This document shows positions 13,264 through 64,000 of a DNA stretch of 64,000 nucleotides, in pieces. The notes beneath the pieces were generated by a model. It searched no databases and had not been told where the DNA came from. It saw only the letters and a program-made list of their open reading frames with translations. How positions within the stretch are numbered: the stretch's first letter is position 1; each line of letters opens with the position of its first letter. Origin of the DNA: Crocinitomicaceae bacterium (GTDB lineage Bacteria; Bacteroidota; Bacteroidia; Flavobacteriales_D; Crocinitomicaceae); the NCBI GenBank assembly GCA_033791225.1, contig JASJHD010000008.1, forward strand, positions 189,814 to 253,813. The letters run 5' to 3'. The position numbers and the translations under genes were made by a program.

Positions 13264-14508
13264 ATGTCCTTCCTCAAAAAATATTACACTTCTGAAAAGG
13301 CCATTGTTAATGCTGCTTTATTAATTTATCTGATTTCGCTGCTTTTTATTCTTCCATTTACAGCCTCCGATTCACTCTTGTTTTTTACGGTAGACTCTAA
13401 AGAATATTACTCCACCCTTATGGAGTTTTTTCAGTTTGATCAGACCGGATATTCGGAGACTAGACCCATTTTATACCCCTTGATTCTTTGGCTTCTACAT
13501 TCAGTTGGAGGCGCCACTTTAGTAACTTTTATTCAATTATTCTTGTGGCTGATTTCTGCCAATTTAATCTACTTTTCTGTAAAAAACTTTACTCAAAACA
13601 GAGTAGTGGCTGTACTTGCCTTAGTTTTATTCTCTTTAAACATCTCATTAATCGCTTTAACTTTTCATGCACTAACTGAAGTTGTAACTGTGTTCTTTCT
13701 ATCGCTTTTAATCTTCCAGTTAGTCAAACGTAAAGGCGTTCTATTTGAAATAAAAACGTACAAGATTGTAGTTTCCCTTTTTGTAGTATTGACGTTAATC
13801 AAACCTCTTTTCTTCATCCCGCTTCTTGCTTTTCTATTCATAGGAACTTTCTTTTATTTTAAAAAATTCAGCGCTCAACCCAAGAAAATTATTGGTGTAA
13901 TTATCATTCTTTTGCCGTTACTCTTTCAAATGACCGTGATGAAAACAAAGTATGATGAATTCACTGTCTCCAGAATTAGTGAATTGACTGTTCGGCGCTA
14001 TTTCGTCGCTCAGCGATTTGAACGCGTAGAAAATATTCCCCGAGAAGAGGCCATTATTCTCGCTGAAGAACTAACAAAAGATGAAGTTATCTCCAGCTTA
14101 CTGTCAGATCAGCCCCATTACTGGCAGTATTTTCATGAAAACGTAAATGAAAATATAAGCGGTATTCCTGTTTTTTTATCTCTATCTGAGACTCTCAAAC
14201 ATCCTGCATCCTTGGATCTCATGCAAAATTACAATGATTGGTATAAATCAGTTTATGGGATTTTCAAGTATCTTTTCCTCGGTTTCGTCTTTGTGCTCCT
14301 ATTGAAAAAGAAGATATTAGATAATGCAGTAATCATTTTTGTTTTTCTTCTATCATTTTACATTATCTGGACCACTGGAATCTCTTTTTCACAAGGAGAC
14401 AGGTTGACGCTCCCTAGTATTCCCCTTTCTATATTTGGATATCTCGTCTTAATACACATTGTAGTAAAGCAATGTGGAATTCTATTAAAGACCAAAAAAA
14501 ATAAGTGA
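13264..14508 (+). CDS. Polytopic membrane protein, function unknown
   Basis: The 414-aa ORF has roughly 10 or more hydrophobic segments and no diagnostic motif. Confidence 0.7.
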   Translation: MSFLKKYYTSEKAIVNAALLIYLISLLFILPFTASDSLLFFTVDSKEYYSTLMEFFQFDQTGYSETRPILYPLILWLLHSVGGATLVTFIQLFLWLISANLIYFSVKNFTQNRVVAVLALVLFSLNISLIALTFHALTEVVTVFFLSLLIFQLVKRKGVLFEIKTYKIVVSLFVVLTLIKPLFFIPLLAFLFIGTFFYFKKFSAQPKKIIGVIIILLPLLFQMTVMKTKYDEFTVSRISELTVRRYFVAQRFERVENIPREEAIILAEELTKDEVISSLLSDQPHYWQYFHENVNENISGIPVFLSLSETLKHPASLDLMQNYNDWYKSVYGIFKYLFLGFVFVLLLKKKILDNAVIIFVFLLSFYIIWTTGISFSQGDRLTLPSIPLSIFGYLVLIHIVVKQCGILLKTKKNK

Positions 14509-18662: not shown

Positions 18663-19583
18663 ATGAAATACGTCGGATTACAGGGCCAAATCAGTAAAAA
18701 CAACAGGAAATCTATTCTAATGTTAATGGGATTTCCTGCCCTGATATTGGCTGCAACATATGCATTTGTTTACTTTCTCGGTGGCTATGACAATATTTAT
18801 GACATAAATATTATCTTTTTAGAAACGCTTCCGTTTGTACTTATCGGAGTGGCAATCTGGTTTCTGATTGCCTTTGCTTCTCACTCAGCTCTGATCAAAT
18901 TATCGACCGGAGCAAAATCACTCGAGCGAAAAGAAAATATGCGCATTTACAACCTTACGGAAAACCTCTGTATGTCAGTTGGAATAACGATGCCTCAATT
19001 GTATGTCATCGAGTCAGATGCCCTGAACGCTTTTGCCTCGGGAATTAACGAGAAATCGTACGCGGTCACATTGACGCGTGGGATTATTGAGACCTTGGAT
19101 GATAAAGAACTCGAAGGTGTTATTGCTCATGAGTTAACTCACATTCGAAACAGAGATGTTCGGTTGCTAATTATCTCTATCATTTTCGTTGGGATTTTTG
19201 GCTTCCTTGTTCAGATGATTTTACGAACACTTATTTTTGGAGGTAGAGGGCGTGGGAACAAAAAAGTAGATGGTCGAGTCATGCTCATTGCACTGGTGAT
19301 CGCTATTGTGGTCTATATTCTGTCTATACTTTTCAAGTTTGCACTGTCACGTAAACGGGAATACCTCGCTGATGCGGGTGCCGTTGAAATGACCAAAGAT
19401 CCGATGGCAATGGCTTCGGCTCTGCGTAAGATTTCTGGCAATAGTGAATTAGAACTTAAGAGTGATGACATGAAGCAAGCATTTATTGAAAACGGTCCGA
19501 AGAAGGAGGCTGTTGGATTATCTGGCTGGTTTGCAACGCATCCGCCGATCGCAAAGCGAATTGAGTTCTTAGAGAAAATGTAA
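18663..19583 (+). CDS. M48 family (HtpX-like) zinc metalloprotease
   Basis: TM helices, the HEXXH motif in VIAHELTHIRNRD, and a downstream EYLADAGA segment. Confidence 0.88.
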   Translation: MKYVGLQGQISKNNRKSILMLMGFPALILAATYAFVYFLGGYDNIYDINIIFLETLPFVLIGVAIWFLIAFASHSALIKLSTGAKSLERKENMRIYNLTENLCMSVGITMPQLYVIESDALNAFASGINEKSYAVTLTRGIIETLDDKELEGVIAHELTHIRNRDVRLLIISIIFVGIFGFLVQMILRTLIFGGRGRGNKKVDGRVMLIALVIAIVVYILSILFKFALSRKREYLADAGAVEMTKDPMAMASALRKISGNSELELKSDDMKQAFIENGPKKEAVGLSGWFATHPPIAKRIEFLEKM

Positions 19584-51620: not shown

Positions 51621-54600
51621 CTAACGCAACACATTCACATGTCCCGTTGCTGTATGGTCTTTATCACTCATCAATTCTTGAAACTGAATAGTCCAAGTGT
51701 AGGTTCCGCTTTGAACAAGGTGTCCCATATATGTTCCGTCCCAGCCCGAAGATACATCTGACGTTTCAAAAATCAATTCTCCCCAACGATTGTAGATTCG
51801 CATGACAAAGTTAAATTCATCAATTCCAGAAGTAAATACCGGTCGGAAGTCTTGATTAAATTCATCACCATCTGGTGTGAAAGTGTTCGGTACATAGTAC
51901 ACAATAACATCGTTGATGGAAACTACCGCTTGAACAGTATCGACACACACACCGTTGGTTGCAATTAGTGTTACGATGTAGTCCGCATCTGCGTCATCTG
52001 GGAAAATATGGGTAGGGTTTTCCTCTGTTGACACTGATTCATCTCCGAATATCCATTCATACGTAACCGCATCCACCGAAGTGTTTTCGAAATCGACCTC
52101 TGTGTCAAAGATATCCAACTCGTACTGATCAGCAATAAAACCAGCTAATGGAGAATCAAACACGGCGATATAATCTACGTACTCCAAGGTGTCAACACAG
52201 CCAAATACATCCGTGATGTTCAGCTGAATAGTAAAGGCCCCACTTTCATCAAAAACATGCGTAACACTAGTACAACCTGAATCAAACTCACCATCTCCAA
52301 AACTCCACTCACAGTTGATCGGGTCTCCAAGGGATACATTGGTAAAGGTTACACTCAGTGGAGAACAACCACTTAGCGTGTCTGCTAAAAATAGCGCTTG
52401 TGGGTTTAGATGTACGTTCACGTTTACATCATCTGTCGCAATACAACCATCCGCACTTGTTGCAGTTACCGTATATGTTGTAGTAACAGCAGGAGTAAAT
52501 TCTACTCCATCGTTAACTGCATTGTCCCAAGCGATTGTTGCACCACTTGGATTGATTGCTGTTAAAGTCACTGATTCTCCTTCACAAATTTCTACACTTG
52601 TACCGGCGTCGACAGTAGGGAGTGGATTAACGGTCACATTCGTTATTATTAAACTATCACAGCCTCCCAAACCAGCAAACTGCGAAGTATATACTTCGTC
52701 AAGTAGTATGTTGGTGTGTGTAATCCCATCTGGATAGGTAAAGTCGTCTCCTTCACATATCGCAACGTCAACAGTTGTTGAATATGTTGGAAGCATTGTA
52801 ACATTGGTCGTGATTATTGAATCGCAACCATTTATTGATAGTAAATCACTGATATGAGTAACGTCGACTAAAATGGTTTCTACCGTACCATCAGGATAGG
52901 TATACGCCTCATTTTCACACACCGAAACAGCATCTATGGTGGCATAAACAGGATTCATTGTAACGTTAGTAGTAATGATTGAATCACACCCAAGTGCTGT
53001 TGTTAAATTGCTTACATGAGATGAATTTGCTATGATTGTCTCTACTGTTCCATCTGGGTAGGTATGATCATCCCCTTCACAAACTCCAACATCCACTATT
53101 AATGCGTAGACTGGAAGCATTGTGACATTGGTCGTGATGATTGAATCGCAACCATTTATCGATAGTAGATTACTGGCATGCGTAACATTCGCTAATATCG
53201 TTTCTACAACTCCGTCAGGATAGGTATAATCGTCATTTTCACATACTGAGACTGCATCTACCGAAGCGTATACCGGATTCATTGTAATGTTGGTAGTAAT
53301 GATTGAATCACAGCCCAATGATGATATCAAGTTGCTCACTTGAGTAGTATTTCCAAGGATGGTCTCAATGGTTCCATCTGGGTAGGTATAATCATCTCCT
53401 TCACATATCGCAACGTCGACTATTGCTGCGTACGTCGGAAGCATTGTGATGTTTGTTGTAATTGTTGAATCACATCCATTTACCGAAAGCAGATTACTAA
53501 CATGCGAGACGTTCGCTGTGATCGTTTCAATGACTCCATCAGGATAGGTATAATCATCATTTTCACACACTGAAACATCATCCACAGACACGTATATTGG
53601 GCTCATGGTAACATTGGTTGTGACAATAGAATCACAGCCAAGCACTGAAGTTAAAGTACTCAAGTGAATTGTATTACCAATGATTAGCTCCACTGCTCCA
53701 TCTGGGTATGTATGGTTTGTGTTCTCGCATACGGATGTATCTTCAATACTACTTTCCACTGGGTAAACGACAACAGAATCCATAGTCCCAAGGGCTTGTG
53801 GACAATTTCCATCATCGATTGAATCGAGCAACAAGACTTGATTCACGGATACAGCGGGAATGATAATGGTTCCTACTCCACCTGTTAATGTGATAGTTTG
53901 ATTCGCTCCACCATTGATCGAATAGGTAACTAAGGCATCAACGGCACCTGTTAAATCGAACTGTGCATCCTCTCCATCACAAATAGGCCCGTTATGCGCA
54001 ATTAATACAGTTGGAATTGGATTTACAACTACAGTCGCTGTCGTTCCAAGGGTGTTTGAACAATGGACGTCCCCAATGGAAATTAGGTTCATTGTTAAAT
54101 CAGTCGTGACATTGTATACCGTAACATACATCGTGTCACTTGTAAATAATAAGGTTGAATCCAAACCGCCAAAATTATAAATCAGGGTAGCGCCGTCATG
54201 TCCAATAATTGAGAAATAGGCAGAATCTCCAGAGCAAATAGGTCCATTCGTAATCACTTCAGCATCCGGCATGTGGTGTTCTGGAATATCAAATGTTACT
54301 GTCGATGAACATCCTAAAGCATCCGTAGCCGTTACCCAATATGCACCTTCAGCAAGTCCTGTAAGCGTTGGGCCAACATCTGTAGTGCTCCAAGTAAACA
54401 CAATTGGAGCAGCTCCGCCTGAAGCGTTTGCTGTTGCTTCACCATCAGTAAATCCTTCACATGTTCCAGTTAAGGATTGAATATATACCACTGGAACACT
54501 TGCAGATGGGAAAACATCAATGCTATCCGTTATTGCACAACCCGTTGTAGCATCCGTAATCGTTACCCCATAATTGGCAAATGGCAATCCAGTAATCGTT

Positions 54601-57600
54601 GAACTCGTAACGCCATTTTCAATAATTCCATTGTCCCATGAGAAATTGTATAATCCTGGAGAACTCACAGTTGCAGTAGCTGTACCATCATCTGAGCAAA
54701 GGACATCTGTTGAAGACATCGTTACTGTAGGGAATTGGTTTACTGTTACGGTGAAGTCGATAGAAGTTGGACAAGAAACTATCATTTGCCCGCCAACTAT
54801 CGTCGTTGAATATACTGTCGCAGTATAGGTTGTTGTTGTCAAAGGATTAACGCTTACACTCCCAATTCCCGCTGGAACAAGGCCTGTTGTTGGTGACCAT
54901 ACCACAGAATCCGTTGGCGCTAAACCAAAAAGAGAAAGTACGGAAGACTCTCCTTCGCACATTGTAACGTCTCCAGAACCACCTACAGCTGGTACCGGCA
55001 ACACATGCAAATAAACAATATCTGCAGGTGCCATTCCACAACAATCAGTTGTCATCACCATAGAAATTGTGAAAAATCCAGGTGTATTGAATTGACTTGT
55101 TACTACTTGTATATTCCCTGGATTTGGAATTGCTCCGTCGAAATCCCATAAATAAGTATCACCGTAATAAAGGCTTTCAAATGTTGCAAAATCACCTACA
55201 CATAAAATAAATGTATCAGGCGTTAAGGCAGGTGCCGTTGATATAATTTCAGGTATAATATTGTTTGAAAAAGCAATGTTATGGAATCCTGTATAGGTAT
55301 CCACACCGGCAATAATATCGTATCTATCGACTACGGAAAATTGAGTCGTCACCAATGCTCCAGTTGGGCTTTGTGGCGTTGCATTTCCTGTGAAATTCCA
55401 TGTTACAGATCCTGGTGCTGTAAAATCAACATCCGTATCTGTACAGTTGATGTTTTCTGCTGTGATTGTCGGCTGTGTCGTTAATCCGAAGTTGGTAATT
55501 GACGTTGCAAGTGCACTTCCGCCTCCAGTATATGTTTGACTGGTCTCTCCTGGCTGACCGCTTCCACCGTCACCGCCATTGCCACCTTTTCCTCCGATAC
55601 CGCCGTCACCGCCACAACCAACTTCACCTCCAGTATATGTTGAACCGTTTCCTCCATTCCCTCCATTTCCTCCATTCCCTCCAGCACCCGCTGTACCTCC
55701 AGCACCAAGAGTCCCTGAAGTCAAATCAGAATCTATAATATTTCCATTTGTACCGTTCAAGAATAAATAAACCGCAAATGAAGAACCTCCTCCAGTTCCA
55801 CCTGCTCCCGCGGTTCCAGCCTGTCCGCCACCGCCGCCGCCGCCGCCACCTGACCCATGACCATCGATGCAGAAAAGTCCTCCTTCACCAGCACCACCGC
55901 CACCGCCGCCTCCGCCAGCACCACCGGTTCCATTCGTTCCATTTCCTCCAATTCCTCCTGGAGTCCAAAATCCTCCAATATGTGCTCCAGCAGAACCTGC
56001 AGCTCCATTCGTTCCATTCGCACCAGCTACTCCGTTTCCTGCATCATTCCCTGATTCTGAAGATCCACAGTTAACACTACTATTACAACCACTTTCTTGT
56101 CCAGCAGTTCCTGAAGCTCCACCTCCTCCGCCACCGTTTCCGCCGACTCCACCATCACGGTCTTCACCTCCACCGGAACCACCGCCTGCGCCACCGCCTC
56201 CGTTTATTCCAACTGGAGCACCTCCAGCTCCACCATTAAATGCATTTACACTGCAACAGTTTCCGCCGGCTCCTGCATTAGCAGCACCGCCACCATTTCC
56301 GCCGTTTCCACCACCGCCACCATTGTTGTCGTCGTCGTTATTTCCATTTTGACCTCCTGCGCCATTTACACCGGTTTCCCCAGGTGCTCCTAAGGATCCG
56401 AGTATGCCTTGCGCAGCATCTCCAGAGAATATTTGGCATCGCACAATGTTGTAATCACCACACGCTGTTAGGTGTAGACCATACGTTGACATTCCTGGTT
56501 GATTTCCATTGTCTGTGGTAACAGTTAAGTCTTGCAATCTAAATCCAATACTTCCATTTGCATAGAACGCGACTAGACGCTGACCATTTACCGGTCCTTC
56601 AGGGTTTGCAGATGTTCTATTAATGGTTGTCGCTCCAGGTAGACTTGTTTTTGTCCATCCTGCTCCTTGATTAAATCCACCTTCCAGTGTCACAAAACTC
56701 CCTATTGTAAGAGCGTTATCAATGTTGTATGTTCCAGTTGCCAACTTAATGACAGCATCGTTACAGGCCGCCATGTTAAGTCCTTCCGCTAAGGTTGTTG
56801 GTGCTGTTTGAGTTCCCGCCGCAGCAGCATTTCCCGTGGTTGAAACGTAGATGTTTACACAGCTAGGTAAGGCTGGAGGTGTTCCAACAGTTAAATATGC
56901 CGTGTCGGTTGATTGACATCCTGAAGTTGGATTAGTTACTACTAAAATATATGCATACGTTCCGGCTGTAGAAGGTACCGTAACCGACATTGTCGTTTGT
57001 GATCCCGCTACTGTTCCAGTGCCAAGTGAAGTCATCGCTGGATCGAACCATTCGAAATTCATTCCTACTTGATCCGTTGTACCTGTTAGCAAGAAGTTTG
57101 CTCCAGCACAAGCATCAGCTGCATCAGGAAATACGTCCGCAGCTGGATCAGACAATACCGTAATCATTGCAGCGTCGGTAGATGTACAGCCATCAGTATA
57201 AGTTAGTGTAACAGTATAAGAAGTTGTGGAGCCAGGGGTTGCATCTGTTGTAGCGTTTGCCGGATTAGTTAAGTCTGTAACAGGTGTCCATTCATAAGAA
57301 GCAATTGTCAATGGATCTGCCCCGCTAGTTGCATTAAGAATAACTGTTTCCCCCGCACAAATACTTTGGTCCAATCCTGCATCTACAACAGGGTGCGGAT
57401 TAGGAACTACATTAATTGTATAAACTGCTGTGTTTTGTCCAATCAAAGGACAAGCGTCATCTTCTGATGTAATGCTAAACGGATAACTTCCCACGTCTCC
57501 AATAGAAGTGCTCCAACAGAATGTTCCAACAGGGTTTGTTGGTGTTCCGCCTAAATTAAACACTGCCCCAGGTATTGAATTGTCGTATACCATACTCACC

Positions 57601-58526
57601 AATTGTCCAGCATCTGCATCTGAAGCATTGACATCGAAACAGATTGTCGCACCTTCACAAATGGTGATTTCGTAAACTCCTGGAACACCATTAATTCCTG
57701 ATATTGTGGGGATGGTATTGGTACATGGACGAATCACGAATTGGATGTCACGCATGATTGACCCAATCAGTACTCCATTTCTATACTCTTCAATTAATAT
57801 GGCTACTACAGCTACTTGAGGGACGTTTGGCGTGAAAGTTATTTGTCCAGTTGCGGGGTCCAATACTAAAGGAACTGTAAAAGGGTTTACTCCACTAAAC
57901 CCACCGTTATAGTTTACGGAGGTTCCTGCGGATTGCAAAGCATTCACAAGTGAATAAACCAACAAATCACCGTCAGCATCAAATGCCAATTGCTGAAAAT
58001 TTATCGTTTGCCCAACGCATCCAAAGAACTGAGGGACGCTTGAAAAGGCAGGAGATGTATCTGCTAAACCTCCAGTGTTGTCTAAGTGAGCTTCAATATA
58101 AATCGCTTGACTACTGGGTCCAGATAAATTCGTGATTGCGGCGTTTCTACAGCACGCGCTGGTCCACAGTACCCAATCAGAACAACCTGGAGGTAAATTT
58201 AATGTTCCTTCAAATACCAATAATTCTATTCCCAAACTTCCCCCACCGTTACAAGCGCTGGGTTCTGAAGGACACAATGGAGTAACATCTGTTGTTGACT
58301 GTAGGCTCAGTGTAATGCTTGAATTCACTCCGCATGACGCCGATGAATAATTTACGGTTTGTGATGTTCCTACGGTGACCCCGTTACAATCACGGTATAC
58401 TTTAAATGTTACCAAGTATTGATTTGGCCCAACGTATGTATAAGTAAGTTCTCCACCTGAATAGTGCGACGCGCTTGCCATAAGCCCAAATGAAATTGTA
58501 AAAATAAGAGCTAAAATGGCGCGCAT
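51621..58526 (-). CDS. Giant (about 2301 aa) cell-surface adhesin with T9SS type-B (gliding-motility-associated, CHU_C-type) C-terminal domain
   Basis: The signal peptide starts at ATG 58526 (MRAILALIFTISFGLMASA), followed by SHYSGGELTYTYVG...YRDCNG. Ig-like modules, a beta-helix-like segment, a Gly-rich core, 7 x 54-aa repeats and a PKD-like module (WSFGDGE) follow. The C-terminus is YYVPNTFTPDGDEFNQDFRPV...IYNRWGELIFE...WDG......SGTYTW. The track start at 58673 adds 49 non-signal residues and would contain the promoter box. Confidence 0.9.
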   Translation of the reverse strand: MRAILALIFTISFGLMASASHYSGGELTYTYVGPNQYLVTFKVYRDCNGVTVGTSQTVNYSSASCGVNSSITLSLQSTTDVTPLCPSEPSACNGGGSLGIELLVFEGTLNLPPGCSDWVLWTSACCRNAAITNLSGPSSQAIYIEAHLDNTGGLADTSPAFSSVPQFFGCVGQTINFQQLAFDADGDLLVYSLVNALQSAGTSVNYNGGFSGVNPFTVPLVLDPATGQITFTPNVPQVAVVAILIEEYRNGVLIGSIMRDIQFVIRPCTNTIPTISGINGVPGVYEITICEGATICFDVNASDADAGQLVSMVYDNSIPGAVFNLGGTPTNPVGTFCWSTSIGDVGSYPFSITSEDDACPLIGQNTAVYTINVVPNPHPVVDAGLDQSICAGETVILNATSGADPLTIASYEWTPVTDLTNPANATTDATPGSTTSYTVTLTYTDGCTSTDAAMITVLSDPAADVFPDAADACAGANFLLTGTTDQVGMNFEWFDPAMTSLGTGTVAGSQTTMSVTVPSTAGTYAYILVVTNPTSGCQSTDTAYLTVGTPPALPSCVNIYVSTTGNAAAAGTQTAPTTLAEGLNMAACNDAVIKLATGTYNIDNALTIGSFVTLEGGFNQGAGWTKTSLPGATTINRTSANPEGPVNGQRLVAFYANGSIGFRLQDLTVTTDNGNQPGMSTYGLHLTACGDYNIVRCQIFSGDAAQGILGSLGAPGETGVNGAGGQNGNNDDDNNGGGGGNGGNGGGAANAGAGGNCCSVNAFNGGAGGAPVGINGGGGAGGGSGGGEDRDGGVGGNGGGGGGASGTAGQESGCNSSVNCGSSESGNDAGNGVAGANGTNGAAGSAGAHIGGFWTPGGIGGNGTNGTGGAGGGGGGGGAGEGGLFCIDGHGSGGGGGGGGGQAGTAGAGGTGGGSSFAVYLFLNGTNGNIIDSDLTSGTLGAGGTAGAGGNGGNGGNGGNGSTYTGGEVGCGGDGGIGGKGGNGGDGGSGQPGETSQTYTGGGSALATSITNFGLTTQPTITAENINCTDTDVDFTAPGSVTWNFTGNATPQSPTGALVTTQFSVVDRYDIIAGVDTYTGFHNIAFSNNIIPEIISTAPALTPDTFILCVGDFATFESLYYGDTYLWDFDGAIPNPGNIQVVTSQFNTPGFFTISMVMTTDCCGMAPADIVYLHVLPVPAVGGSGDVTMCEGESSVLSLFGLAPTDSVVWSPTTGLVPAGIGSVSVNPLTTTTYTATVYSTTIVGGQMIVSCPTSIDFTVTVNQFPTVTMSSTDVLCSDDGTATATVSSPGLYNFSWDNGIIENGVTSSTITGLPFANYGVTITDATTGCAITDSIDVFPSASVPVVYIQSLTGTCEGFTDGEATANASGGAAPIVFTWSTTDVGPTLTGLAEGAYWVTATDALGCSSTVTFDIPEHHMPDAEVITNGPICSGDSAYFSIIGHDGATLIYNFGGLDSTLLFTSDTMYVTVYNVTTDLTMNLISIGDVHCSNTLGTTATVVVNPIPTVLIAHNGPICDGEDAQFDLTGAVDALVTYSINGGANQTITLTGGVGTIIIPAVSVNQVLLLDSIDDGNCPQALGTMDSVVVYPVESSIEDTSVCENTNHTYPDGAVELIIGNTIHLSTLTSVLGCDSIVTTNVTMSPIYVSVDDVSVCENDDYTYPDGVIETITANVSHVSNLLSVNGCDSTITTNITMLPTYAAIVDVAICEGDDYTYPDGTIETILGNTTQVSNLISSLGCDSIITTNITMNPVYASVDAVSVCENDDYTYPDGVVETILANVTHASNLLSINGCDSIITTNVTMLPVYALIVDVGVCEGDDHTYPDGTVETIIANSSHVSNLTTALGCDSIITTNVTMNPVYATIDAVSVCENEAYTYPDGTVETILVDVTHISDLLSINGCDSIITTNVTMLPTYSTTVDVAICEGDDFTYPDGITHTNILLDEVYTSQFAGLGGCDSLIITNVTVNPLPTVDAGTSVEICEGESVTLTAINPSGATIAWDNAVNDGVEFTPAVTTTYTVTATSADGCIATDDVNVNVHLNPQALFLADTLSGCSPLSVTFTNVSLGDPINCEWSFGDGEFDSGCTSVTHVFDESGAFTIQLNITDVFGCVDTLEYVDYIAVFDSPLAGFIADQYELDIFDTEVDFENTSVDAVTYEWIFGDESVSTEENPTHIFPDDADADYIVTLIATNGVCVDTVQAVVSINDVIVYYVPNTFTPDGDEFNQDFRPVFTSGIDEFNFVMRIYNRWGELIFETSDVSSGWDGTYMGHLVQSGTYTWTIQFQELMSDKDHTATGHVNVLR
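52620..53745. repeat. Seven in-frame 162-bp tandem repeats with a 324-bp (two-unit) super-period
   Basis: Protein unit: [VI]CE[NG]..[YH]TYPDG..E.I..N..H.S.L.S..GCDSI[IV]TTN[IV]TM.P.Y......V. Units alternate between VCEN-type and ICEGD-type. At the DNA level, units two apart are visibly about 90% identical (for example 52795-52860 against 53119-53184). Confidence 0.9.
55520..56400. repeat. Glycine-rich low-complexity coding segment (~295 aa)
   Basis: GGNGGNGGNGGNG, GGGGGGGGAGEGG and GGIGGKGGNGGDGGSG tracts are interspersed with Cys-containing islands (GNCCSVNAF, GCNSSVNCG, LFCIDGHG, EVGCGG). By eye, roughly half the residues are Gly. Confidence 0.9.
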
Positions 58527-58600
58527 AAGTAGAGTTTTGTCTACACCGTAAGATGCAGGTTGAAGTAGTAATAGTCTTATCCAATCGAAATCGGAATACT

Positions 58601-58608
58601 CAAAGTTA
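58601..58608 (-). promoter_or_regulatory. Candidate -7 box (TAACTTTG on minus strand) for the giant adhesin gene
   Basis: The + strand reads CAAAGTTA, 74 nt upstream of ATG 58526. Confidence 0.3.
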
Positions 58609-58747
58609 TAGAAAACCCAGCGTTTAACAAATAATGGAGTGAGATACCTGCTATTTCTCCATTTCAAATTCATTAAATTATTGTGAGAAATTGCGAGAGC
58701 AATGTTAACTTTGCGACATGATTAGTAGGAATTCGACTAATTGTACT

Positions 58748-61577: not shown

Positions 61578-62675
61578 TCAAACATCTTCAATGATTTCAA
61601 GGATTGCCTCCTTGGCTATTTTTAGACCTTTTCTCTTCTCGTTCTTTTTCAATTTATATTTTTCTTCGGAATCAACATTACCCCCTTTACTGATCTCAAG
61701 AATTGCAAATTTTAGTAAAAGTGATGACCTCAAGTCAACATAGCCTGACTGCCAAAATTTCTCAACATTCAACCCGAGTCTTTGTACGTTACAATCCTTC
61801 ATTTGAAATTGGGATAACCCTTCAAACAAAGTATTTAAGTTCGCTTTATTGAGTATTATAGAATTTGAGCCTTTAAAAGACGAATTAATTCTATTGGTCA
61901 ATACTCTTTTAATTAAAATCGTATGTTGCTTTCTGTGAATTCGAGCAAATACAAAATCGATTGAGTTCCGATAATAAAAAGAAGATATTGATGTAAAAAT
62001 TTTTACAGATTTATATAATCTATTTTCACTGAGCGTAGGTTCAAATTTAAACTGAAACTGAAACTTGGGTTCCTTGGTGATAACAGCCTCCTTCGTACTG
62101 TGTGAATCACGATGAGCAAAATTATATTGTGGGCTAAAATCTATGTCATCTAACTTATACCAATCTTTCGCATCATTCATTCTACCTATTGAGAATCCCC
62201 CATCTTCTTGTGGCCACATTACCCCATAAAAATCAGAAACCAATTGGAATCCACTTTCATTAAGGTAAAACTCTGCAGTTCCAACATTATCCTTGACGGG
62301 ATTCCAATAAGATTTGCAATAATCGATTTTCAGGGTGATCCAACTACCTAGTTCCTTATGAATTTGTGAACCTGTTTGTATACCCAATATTGCTGCATTA
62401 CTCAAATCAAACTTTTTAAGCCTTTCGTGTTTGGTGAGTAGTTTAGTAGAAATGAATTGACCGAATTCATCCCATCGGATCTTCTGTGCCCAAGAACTGA
62501 ATTTACGACCGAAATAAGTAGATGAAGGGTAAAATATCTGCAGCTCTATTTCAGACTCTGTAAGAATTAAGTGTCCATGAAAGCTTTCAGGGCAAAGTTC
62601 CTTCCCAGAATAAAAAGAGTCAAAACCGACATCTTTAAATTTTATTTCAAGACAATATTCTTTGTTCTCACTCAT
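61578..62675 (-). CDS. Uncharacterised 365-aa protein; possible ApeA-like/HEPN-type effector (speculative)
   Basis: ATG 62675 is preceded by AGGAGGGGT, an AGGAGG box that is unusual for Bacteroidota. The track start at 62741 is a TTG overlapping the Fic gene. ARIHRKQH fits the HEPN Rx4-6H pattern. The N-terminus GHLILTESEIELQIF is reminiscent of ApeA N-domains. The gene is very AT-rich. I recognise no family with confidence. Confidence 0.7.
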   Translation of the reverse strand: MSENKEYCLEIKFKDVGFDSFYSGKELCPESFHGHLILTESEIELQIFYPSSTYFGRKFSSWAQKIRWDEFGQFISTKLLTKHERLKKFDLSNAAILGIQTGSQIHKELGSWITLKIDYCKSYWNPVKDNVGTAEFYLNESGFQLVSDFYGVMWPQEDGGFSIGRMNDAKDWYKLDDIDFSPQYNFAHRDSHSTKEAVITKEPKFQFQFKFEPTLSENRLYKSVKIFTSISSFYYRNSIDFVFARIHRKQHTILIKRVLTNRINSSFKGSNSIILNKANLNTLFEGLSQFQMKDCNVQRLGLNVEKFWQSGYVDLRSSLLLKFAILEISKGGNVDSEEKYKLKKNEKRKGLKIAKEAILEIIEDV

Positions 62676-62709
62676 ACCCCTCCTACAATTTTTATCTTCT
62701 TCTAATTCA

Positions 62710-63960
62710 TTATACGTATTTGCAATTAAGTTCCATTTCAAAGTTCTCTACTTCTGTCAGAAGCTCTAACTCATAGGTGACATGTGTAGTGCCTTCAGGT
62801 AATTCAAGTTCCATAAACCGATGATTCCTATCAAAAAACAAAACACCATCAATTACAGGATTGATAGTCATCTCATTTAATAAATAGTCATCTGTTACAT
62901 CAATGGTTTTATTTTCCGCTTTAACAGTTAATTTGAAGGAGTTTTTCAGATTAATTGGATTGAGCTTAATGTTTTCTAATTGAATCTTTGTGAATCCTTG
63001 ACTTAGATCTACTCTCCATGTTTTGAATTTTGATTCCAATGGGTTTTGATAGAATTTATAGGGAGGAAACTCTGAAGGTATAATGATCTCTTTTCGTTGT
63101 GGACCTCTTGTTGTCAATTTAGCAATTAGCTTAGTAAAATCTTCTATGTCCAACTCTGTGCTGGCCTTCTCTAACGCTTTCATGTAATCATTTCGTTCTT
63201 CAACCGTGACAACAGTCCAAGGATAACCTCCTGAAGCCAGCATCGTATTCATAAGAAAACGTCCCATTCTTCCATTTCCATCCATATAAGGGTGGATATA
63301 TACAAAAATGAAATGTCCCAAAACGGCTCTAACAGATGCTTCAGGTTCTTGTTTCAATAATTCAAATAACGTTGGCATTGCATCACGTACTGCATTTTTG
63401 TTGAGTGGTACGTGTTTAGATTGACCAATGTAAACTTGACCAGAACGATATCCTGCTAAGTCGGAAGGTTTAAGTATTCCGGCAGTAACACTTGGGGAAA
63501 ACAATTCAAGATACCAATCACCATGTTCATCTTCAATGACATCACCTGCATTTTCACCAGCCATTATTTTACGAATGCTATCACGAACTTTTTGAGTGGC
63601 TTGCCAATATCCTCTAGCTGCCATTGCATCACGTTGTTTTTTATCTTCCGCATTGTCAGTTGTGTCCCATTCTCCACTTCGTACACGATCAATCAACTCC
63701 CAGCTTACCTTATACCTCTCAATAGACAACGAATGATAAGCATCCAGCACGTAAATTGCTTCTACTTGTTTCATGTAATTGTCCACGTTTTTTGGAATGC
63801 CTGGTGCTTTTGGGAAATTTGCTATTACAACCTCTCGCATATCTGTCCAAATCAATTTAATACGTGTCGCATAGGGTGACACCTCCCTTTGACTTAATAG
63901 AGTAGTGGTTGGGTTTTCAAAAGGATCTGACTCTCTTACATCGTACCCAACTTTCTGCAT
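62710..63960 (-). CDS. Fic family protein (AMPylase-type) with ~130-aa non-canonical C-terminal extension; start may lie beyond window
   Basis: The Fic active-site motif is HPYMDGNGRMGR (HxFx[DE]GNGRxxR). An upstream helix, HSLSIERY, resembles the [ST]xxxE[GN] inhibitory motif with R in place of G/N. The reading frame upstream of Met 63960 stays open to position 64000. Confidence 0.88.
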   Translation of the reverse strand: MQKVGYDVRESDPFENPTTTLLSQREVSPYATRIKLIWTDMREVVIANFPKAPGIPKNVDNYMKQVEAIYVLDAYHSLSIERYKVSWELIDRVRSGEWDTTDNAEDKKQRDAMAARGYWQATQKVRDSIRKIMAGENAGDVIEDEHGDWYLELFSPSVTAGILKPSDLAGYRSGQVYIGQSKHVPLNKNAVRDAMPTLFELLKQEPEASVRAVLGHFIFVYIHPYMDGNGRMGRFLMNTMLASGGYPWTVVTVEERNDYMKALEKASTELDIEDFTKLIAKLTTRGPQRKEIIIPSEFPPYKFYQNPLESKFKTWRVDLSQGFTKIQLENIKLNPINLKNSFKLTVKAENKTIDVTDDYLLNEMTINPVIDGVLFFDRNHRFMELELPEGTTHVTYELELLTEVENFEMELNCKYV

Positions 63961-64000
63961 TGTTTTAAGAATCTCATCAGCAATTTTACCTTTACCTATA

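Follow-up and report, generated by a model that had tools for sequence, protein, structure and literature searches.

A FICD-like Fic gene and a 3′-truncated HEPN-family gene, probably unrelated, lie side by side in a Crocinitomicaceae metagenome-assembled genome

A stretch of 64,000 nucleotides from the 266.8-kb contig JASJHD010000008.1 (referred to here as the window) of a metagenome-assembled genome (MAG) annotated as Crocinitomicaceae bacterium ends with two genes located on the minus strand. The first, gene 1, codes for a Fic protein and the second, gene 2 with the locus tag QNK23_07925, codes for a protein of 365 amino acids. An earlier note, made from the nucleotide sequence alone, proposed that they form a horizontally acquired two-gene toxin or defence cassette. 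The results described below indicate instead that the locus probably consists of two unrelated accessory genes that are adjacent by chance, an intact FICD-like Fic gene and a 3′-truncated member of a HEPN family, and that they are not a co-evolved module.

The amino acid sequence of gene 2 was compared with Pfam, NCBIfam, PADLOC, PHROGs, the PDB sequences and, by profile search, the PDB. No match was found in any of these libraries, which ruled out a direct family assignment. Four relatives, all of them 462-463 amino acids long and sharing 35-46% identity with gene 2, were identified among 5.8 billion proteins. Their alignment with gene 2 showed that they run about 100 residues past its end (…EIIEDV, followed by the stop codon) and that this tail contains the sequence KVRDSITHGS. 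The family is rare, with 167 clusters recovered in a profile search of 1.84 billion representatives; nearly all of them have 440-480 amino acids and align with the profile as far as position ~455. The 84 other members of an 85-sequence alignment have 435-484 amino acids, with a median of 460, while the gene 2 protein stops at about position 361 of the 458 positions of the family hidden Markov model (HMM). The columns that are at least 90% conserved correspond to L138, Y150, I199, K201, P203 and E327, together with three positions (R, H and G) of a motif in the C-terminal region, R[ND]x[IL]xHG. Gene 2 keeps all six of the former residues but not the motif, which 83 of the other 84 members carry.

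Searches for the missing 3′ end gave negative results. An HMM of the last 96 positions of the family found nothing in the six-frame translations of the window or of a Logan contig of identical sequence (L001), although it matched every full-length homologue at E values of 1e-30 to 1e-35, and tblastn found no such region in either sequence. This ruled out a frameshift or a split open reading frame (ORF) that conceals the HEPN 3′ end. Because the homology reaches the last codon of gene 2 and nothing homologous follows, the loss is attributed to a deletion or rearrangement rather than to a point nonsense mutation. When the plasmid and phage collections PLSDB and INPHARED were searched with tblastn, no match to the gene 2 family was detected.

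The nature of the missing region was deduced from the full-length relatives. The Pfam model HEPN_Apea (PF18739) matched 17 of the 85 family members (best E = 7.9e-7) and seven of 10 more remote ones, with a best listed score of 24.2 bits that is under the gathering cut-off of 24.4. Other members were matched by the RiboL-PSP, HepT, Swt1 and MAE_28990 HEPN models. Since the members match HEPN_Apea as well as other HEPN models, the C-terminal domain of the full-length relatives is, judged from these profiles, an ApeA-like HEPN domain, and these proteins are presumably RNases. In the homologues, the HEPN_Apea matches begin at residues ~303-347 and reach ~435-440. In the gene 2 protein itself no HEPN domain was recognized by Pfam, NCBIfam, PADLOC or PHROG models; the first helices alone remain. 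As the family motif sits in the approximately 100 C-terminal residues that are gone from the window copy, gene 2 as encoded cannot, on the basis of its sequence, be a HEPN RNase. The earlier note had pointed to the octapeptide ARIHRKQH as a possible HEPN active site. Although this is the only sequence in the gene 2 protein that fits the Rx5H pattern, its columns in the 85-sequence alignment are variable (R245 is R in 39/85, R248 is L in 43/85 and H251 is H in 8/85 sequences), and it spans two strands, E241-247 and E252-257, that form a β-hairpin in the AlphaFold2 model. The R and the H are not conserved, and ARIHRKQH was ruled out as the active site; the motif of the family lies beyond the truncation.

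The suggestion that gene 2 is reminiscent of ApeA-type proteins named the right superfamily as far as the full-length relatives are concerned, but nothing of the catalytic part is left in the window copy. The studied ApeA proteins, Ec2ApeA included, have about 580 amino acids, are predominantly helical, consist of N-terminal, Mid and HEPN domains, and assemble into doughnut-shaped decamers or dodecamers; ApeA cleaves tRNA anticodon loops and Ec2ApeA is activated by deoxydinucleotides (bioRxiv 10.64898/2026.01.26.701840). The full-length relatives of gene 2 resemble them in their architecture, a C-terminal HEPN domain that carries Rx4H and scores best on HEPN_Apea, preceded by a long N-terminal region, and in being located in defence or restriction-modification (R-M) islands. 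On the other hand, the best listed HEPN_Apea score remains below the cut-off, the N-terminal domain model ApeA_NTD1 (PF18862) matched none of the 95 members scanned, and the PADLOC ApeA model gave no match. A profile search of the 5.8-billion-protein collection for an N-terminal link to ApeA_NTD1 returned six proteins, none of them annotated by Pfam. Because the characterized ApeA proteins are larger and predominantly helical, and the gene 2 family has about 460 amino acids and a β-rich N-terminal region, this family is not ApeA in the experimental sense.

The AlphaFold2 model of gene 2, obtained with the 85-sequence alignment, has a mean predicted local distance difference test score (pLDDT) of 91.9 and a predicted template modelling score (pTM) of 0.86. 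Residues 1-260 are β-rich and residues 280-361 are helical, with helices at 315-329 and 344-361. A Foldseek comparison of this model with PDB and BFVD produced nothing at E <= 1e-3, and a structural assignment of the N-terminal region was consequently ruled out. The weak similarities detected for this region were to the type VI secretion system protein Hcp (7fcf_C, probability 0.99, TM-score 0.41, 136 columns) and to contractile-injection and tail-tube proteins, all at E >= 0.005.

The proposal of a cassette was then confronted with the genomic neighbourhoods of both families. The sample consisted of 17 loci, seven with members of the gene 2 family (L002-L006, L010 and L016) and 10 with members of the Fic family (L007-L009, L011-L015, L017 and L018), and co-occurrence was determined by HMM searches of their six-frame translations. 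A Fic gene was found in none of the seven gene 2-family loci and a gene 2 relative in none of the 10 Fic-family loci. Within this sample the pairing is unique to the Crocinitomicaceae genome, and the two-gene cassette is not supported. The relatives of gene 2 do sit in defence islands. One locus includes MmeI-type R-M genes (L002), another has SIR2, SLFN, type I R-M and HigB genes nearby (L003), a third one has TIR and FRG genes nearby (L016), and in two others an NYN gene is located downstream (L005 and L006). In L010, the sole locus taken from a genome-collection scan with a 5-sequence alignment, the relative has ftsY on one side and ordinary genes on the other. Each of the three full-length relatives closest to gene 2 is directly preceded by another gene at a distance of 0-6 nt (L002:3396-5072, L004:220-1902 and L005:2-163), and L006 also has an abutting upstream gene. 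The partner in L002, which is 558 amino acids long, and that in L004, which is of the same type, have about 560 amino acids and begin with a DUF4365 domain, which is restriction-endonuclease-like (Pfam E = 1.5e-6 and 2e-4). Such an upstream partner was counted in three of the seven loci, with DUF4365 in two of them, and the more distant members in L003, L010 and L016 lack it. DUF4365 and HEPN proteins may constitute a two-gene system.

The relatives of the Fic protein are single genes with variable neighbours and no conserved partner. Those that have a C-terminal extension, described below, were found in the sampled loci mostly beside integrase, relaxase or defence genes. In L007 and L011 the gene lies beside a tyrosine integrase gene located upstream. 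A 677-amino acid relative directly follows the genes for MobC, a relaxase and a TraG-type coupling protein (T4CP), with ThsB_TIR genes nearby, in L014:292-7034 and L015:20-5201. In other loci the neighbours are Tox-ART, Macro and ThsA_Macro genes (L009) or SRA-HNH, NUDIX and AbiEi-like genes (L012 and L013). A 517-amino acid Fluviicola relative is monocistronic and is found among housekeeping genes (L017 and L018). The subfamily with the extension looks like cargo of integrative mobilizable elements.

Both ORFs described in the earlier note are real, but the Fic gene is cut by the edge of the window. Its frame has no stop codon from the first in-window ATG (63960) to the edge, and on the identical contig L001 the complete protein has 636 amino acids and starts at the window-equivalent position 64620; a conserved N-terminal domain of about 210 amino acids falls outside the window. 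The Fic domain (PF02661) scored 45.8 bits, above the cut-off of 24 (E = 1.2e-11), and 44.8 bits in the full protein. The active-site sequence, HPYMDGNGRMGR, satisfies the motif HxFx(D/E)GNGRxxR, and the Y found instead of F at the second variable position is a family-wide trait. All these observations agree with the intact active site that had been recognized before. The sequence of the putative auto-inhibitory helix also reads as previously stated. The sequence SLSIER aligns with TVAIEGN of FICD and has the S and the E of the class II motif (S/T)xxxE(G/N), both invariant. An alignment of 32 proteins of the family shows DAYHSLSIE without variation, followed by R, K or Q where the class II motif has G or N; the deviation of SLSIER is therefore a feature of the family. 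This family is very large and mostly from Bacteroidota, with all 8000 scored candidates at E <= 1e-10.

The closest relative of solved structure is human FICD, which was the best match among PDB sequences (E = 1e-18) and, by Foldseek, in structure (FICD chains at E = 5e-7 to 1e-5, probability 1.00), although the pLDDT of the Fic core is moderate (model mean 73). As in FICD/HYPE-type class II proteins, the Fic motif is accompanied by a predicted inhibitory helix that is N-terminal to the core and keeps its Glu (SLSIE compared with TVAIE). The differences, besides the residue that follows the Glu, are that the bacterial N-terminal domain of approximately 210 amino acids occupies the place of the tetratricopeptide repeat region of FICD, and that an extra C-terminal β-sandwich is found in place of any winged helix-turn-helix. 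SoFic (Shewanella SO_4266), a single-gene entry in PADLOC and DefenseFinder, shares the Fic domain; the PADLOC SoFic HMM matched the Fic core at E = 6.7e-21 over profile positions 52-258 of 361. However, the protein is not a SoFic orthologue. The NCBIfam SoFic equivalog model (NF046030) gave 25.6 bits, far under its cut-off of 550, the match to SoFic in PDB (E ~6e-4) covers about 50 residues, and the N- and C-terminal domains of SoFic are unlike those of the window protein. Gene 1 is an intact, genuine and ordinary FICD-like Fic gene with every invariant residue of the family. By analogy with FICD and other Glu-inhibited Fic proteins, its product would act without a partner, as an auto-inhibited AMP-transferase (or de-AMPylase).

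The β-looking C-terminal extension of about 130 amino acids noticed before is indeed present, as a modelled β-sandwich of about 125 amino acids. Members of the Fic family have one of two architectures, about 515 amino acids with the N-terminal and Fic domains, or about 640 amino acids with the addition of a conserved extension (FPPYKFY...LxCxY), which was found in about 20 of the best 120 homologues. The extension had no Pfam or PHROG match, and its structural matches by Foldseek were weak (jelly-roll, carbohydrate-binding module and nucleoplasmin folds, E = 0.01-0.06). The idea that it is a homologue of the DUF4365 partner of the gene 2 relatives, which would make it a shared adaptor, was ruled out by BLASTP (best E = 0.17).

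The coordinates of the features of the locus are listed in Table 1. The two genes are co-oriented and separated by 34 nt, from the Fic stop codon (62710-62712) to the ATG of gene 2 (62675), as previously described. This ATG, which produces the 365-amino acid protein, was selected over an upstream TTG on the basis of the N-termini of the homologues. The terminator proposed after the pair was confirmed by folding. The hairpin has an energy of -16.7 kcal/mol (z = -4.0), none of 200 shuffled sequences was as stable, and it has an A-tract before and a T-tract after; a simple terminator scan missed it due to one mismatch in the stem. A scan for sigma-70 promoters identified seven sites versus 8.9 expected, with a model that does not cover Bacteroidota promoters. 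An AGGAGG sequence located 3 nt upstream of the ATG of gene 2 is, as had been stated, the sole such box, unique among the 38 ORF starts inspected in the window; the window has 25 further AGGAGG copies, none of which directly precedes one of these starts. Its distance to the ATG is below that of a canonical Shine-Dalgarno sequence. The box was not found upstream of the genes of the gene 2 homologues and is therefore not a family trait. Just outside the window, immediately upstream of the Fic gene and divergent from it, is a 75-amino acid ORF that consists of AbiJ_NTD5 (PF18865, E = 9.2e-20) without the HEPN part (L001:2392-2619, minus strand; window-equivalent 64866-65093). This ORF may be a second abortive-infection fragment without effector in the same region, and it is consistent with a limited cluster of conflict genes that has been eroded in part.

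Table 1. Features of the Fic and gene 2 locus (window positions)
Feature	Position	Strand	Basis or remark
Fic gene, 3′ two-thirds (429 codons plus stop) of the 636-amino acid gene	62710..64000	-	ORF open to the window edge
Predicted auto-inhibitory helix motif SLSIER (class II Fic), Glu retained	63715..63732	-	Aligns with FICD TVAIEGN
Fic active-site loop HPYMDGNGRMGR	63259..63294	-	Read directly; no variation at H, D, G, N, G, R and the last R among 32 aligned members
C-terminal β-sandwich extension of Fic, ~125 amino acids	62713..63087	-	AlphaFold2 strands 301-415, pLDDT about 85-93
AGGAGG box, 3 nt upstream of the gene 2 ATG	62679..62684	-	Unique among the 38 ORF starts inspected
Gene 2, 365 amino acids, 3′-truncated member of a ~460-amino acid family	61578..62675	-	Matches family HMM positions 2-361 of 458
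ARIHRKQH, Rx5H candidate of the earlier note	61923..61946	-	Unconserved columns; predicted β-hairpin
HEPN-domain remnant, first helices, residues ~315-365	61581..61733	-	Ends just before the R[ND]x[IL]xHG region; start coordinate approximate
Terminator-like hairpin, starting 16 nt past the gene 2 stop codon	61535..61561	-	Folding energy compared with shuffled sequences

The composition of the two genes was calculated over their whole length. Gene 2 has a GC content of 34.2% and the part of the Fic gene included in the window has 37.6% (40.1% in the core and 32.1% in the C-terminal extension), compared with 39.3% in the DUF1566-like neighbour and 39.7% in the window. Of the 39 ORFs tested, none has a lower total GC than gene 2, which falls in the first percentile of 1100-nt windows. 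The contrast is much smaller than the 27-28% against 43% estimated from short samples. The GC content at third codon positions (GC3) is 0.31 in gene 2, 0.29-0.30 in Fic, 0.29 in the DUF1566-like gene and 0.30 in a giant ORF located in the same window, all inside the window range. When the ORFs were ranked by the fit of their synonymous codons to the pooled usage of the window, with rank 1 being the worst, gene 2 was 23rd and Fic 34th of 39. GC3 and codon choice being typical, the dip in GC reflects the amino acid composition and not foreign codon usage, and a strong compositional foreignness of the pair was ruled out. The composition of the pair is largely typical of the window. The ties of the two gene families to mobile elements or defence islands are in line with the earlier interpretation; GC3, codon usage and the small GC dip do not support it. 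By composition, two other ORFs, at 13264-14508 and 18663-19583 (both on the plus strand), are better candidates for a foreign origin than the pair; they have the worst fit to the pooled codon usage (mean log-likelihood -1.19 and -1.21, respectively), and the GC of the first is 0.347. The giant ORF (51621-58673, minus strand) codes for 2350 amino acids and has a long Gly/Asn-rich low-complexity core that gives rise to a local GC peak (0.53-0.56 at ~55500-56500) and a strong negative GC skew; the remainder consists of repeated β-rich modules typical of Bacteroidota surface adhesins.

The explanation that we consider likely is that gene 1 is a self-contained Fic gene, whose product has a predicted inhibitory helix with its Glu in cis and belongs to the subfamily with the C-terminal β-sandwich, and that gene 2 is a copy of the gene for a rare defence-island protein of about 460 amino acids, composed of a β-rich N-terminal region of about 300 amino acids and an ApeA-like HEPN domain. 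This copy has shed its last 100 or so codons, including those for the helix with R[ND]x[IL]xHG, by deletion or rearrangement. Gene 2 is then most likely what remains of a defence gene in decay, its function lost, and the Fic transcript might still express no more than a sensor or N-terminal fragment in folded form. Degraded defence genes in defence islands are comparable in that gene 2 is truncated at its 3′ end, has no effector motif and lies beside the Fic gene and the AbiJ_NTD5-only ORF. It differs from them in being still a clean ORF with a confident predicted fold and its own Shine-Dalgarno-like box, so that a complete loss of function is presumed.

A functional link between the two genes was considered in several forms. 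In one of them the module would have been re-wired, so that after losing the HEPN end the putative N-terminal sensor encoded by gene 2 works with Fic, which would replace HEPN as the toxic effector; gene 2 could gate AMPylation by Fic upon infection, or be its target or partner. The shared strand, the 34-nt spacing, the single terminator and the unique AGGAGG are in line with this proposal, as is a gene 2 fragment that is an intact ORF and is predicted with confidence to fold. Furthermore, the abutting DUF4365 genes of the closest full-length relatives indicate that the family tolerates a partner in the upstream position, held here by Fic, and Fic proteins are listed as defence genes, as illustrated by the PADLOC SoFic match. 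However, the pairing was absent from all 17 other loci, the Fic protein is typical of its family with its own putative inhibitory Glu in cis and has no similarity to the DUF4365 partner detectable by BLASTP, and the loss of two-thirds of the HEPN domain would probably, by analogy, disable sensing too. We regard this alternative as unlikely. A broader version, in which the family of about 460 amino acids, whose N-terminal 300 residues have no Pfam, PADLOC or PDB assignment, is an undescribed anti-phage system with its sensor half captured here by a Fic protein that acts in trans in place of the HEPN effector, is similarly improbable.

Fic/Doc toxins are known components of toxin-antitoxin systems, and in class I Fic systems such as VbhT/VbhA a separate small antitoxin provides the inhibitory Glu in trans. 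A role of gene 2 as the antitoxin or immunity protein of a Fic toxin would agree with the adjacency and common orientation of the genes and with a very weak NCBIfam DOC_P1 match to Fic (E = 0.085). This possibility is nevertheless extremely unlikely because, unlike in VbhT/VbhA, the Glu-bearing helix is within the Fic protein itself, where it is invariant in the family, and the relatives of Fic are monocistronic with no conserved partner that would form a bicistronic pair. In addition, gene 2 codes for a 365-amino acid fragment of a HEPN-family protein rather than a small antitoxin, and its relatives occur without any Fic. Finally, gene 2 could really be full-length, with its 3′ end collapsed or mis-joined during assembly or gene calling, an option raised by the metagenomic source and by a junction that lies exactly at the stop codon with the hairpin directly after. 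Since two assemblies agree, this is very unlikely. The NCBI MAG contig and the Logan contig (run SRR23135032) have 0 mismatches across the 5171 nt that they share, the junction at the 3′ end of gene 2 included; moreover, the downstream DUF1566-like gene and the terminator are coherent, and neither tblastn nor the C-terminal HMM found a HEPN remnant anywhere in the 64-kb window.

The interpretation of the two genes as unrelated neighbours also has to face some observations that weigh against it. In spite of its AT-rich DNA, gene 2 remains an open frame of 365 codons, and it retains every one of the six nearly invariant N-terminal residues in a protein modelled with high confidence. An intact and foldable fragment fits a very recent truncation as well as continued selection. 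With a short intergenic distance, a terminator found only after gene 2 and the unique AGGAGG, the arrangement would suit co-expression with Fic. The synteny samples, of seven and 10 loci, are small and consist largely of short metagenomic contigs, and there was no close relative from which the truncation could be dated or in which an ancestral copy of full length could be seen. The MAG and the Logan contig may have been assembled from the same reads, in which case an assembly artefact at the 3′ junction is formally possible.

These results correct the attractive idea of a new defence pair formed by Fic and a nuclease. If the truncated copy did cooperate with Fic, the locus would be an example of the modular exchange of effectors in immune systems, although no finding requires that. 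A useful by-product of the analysis is that it points to a rare and uncharacterized HEPN family found in defence islands, which is a more interesting lead than this locus; its full-length members, such as P0002 and P0003, are better candidates for phage defence than the copy found in the window.

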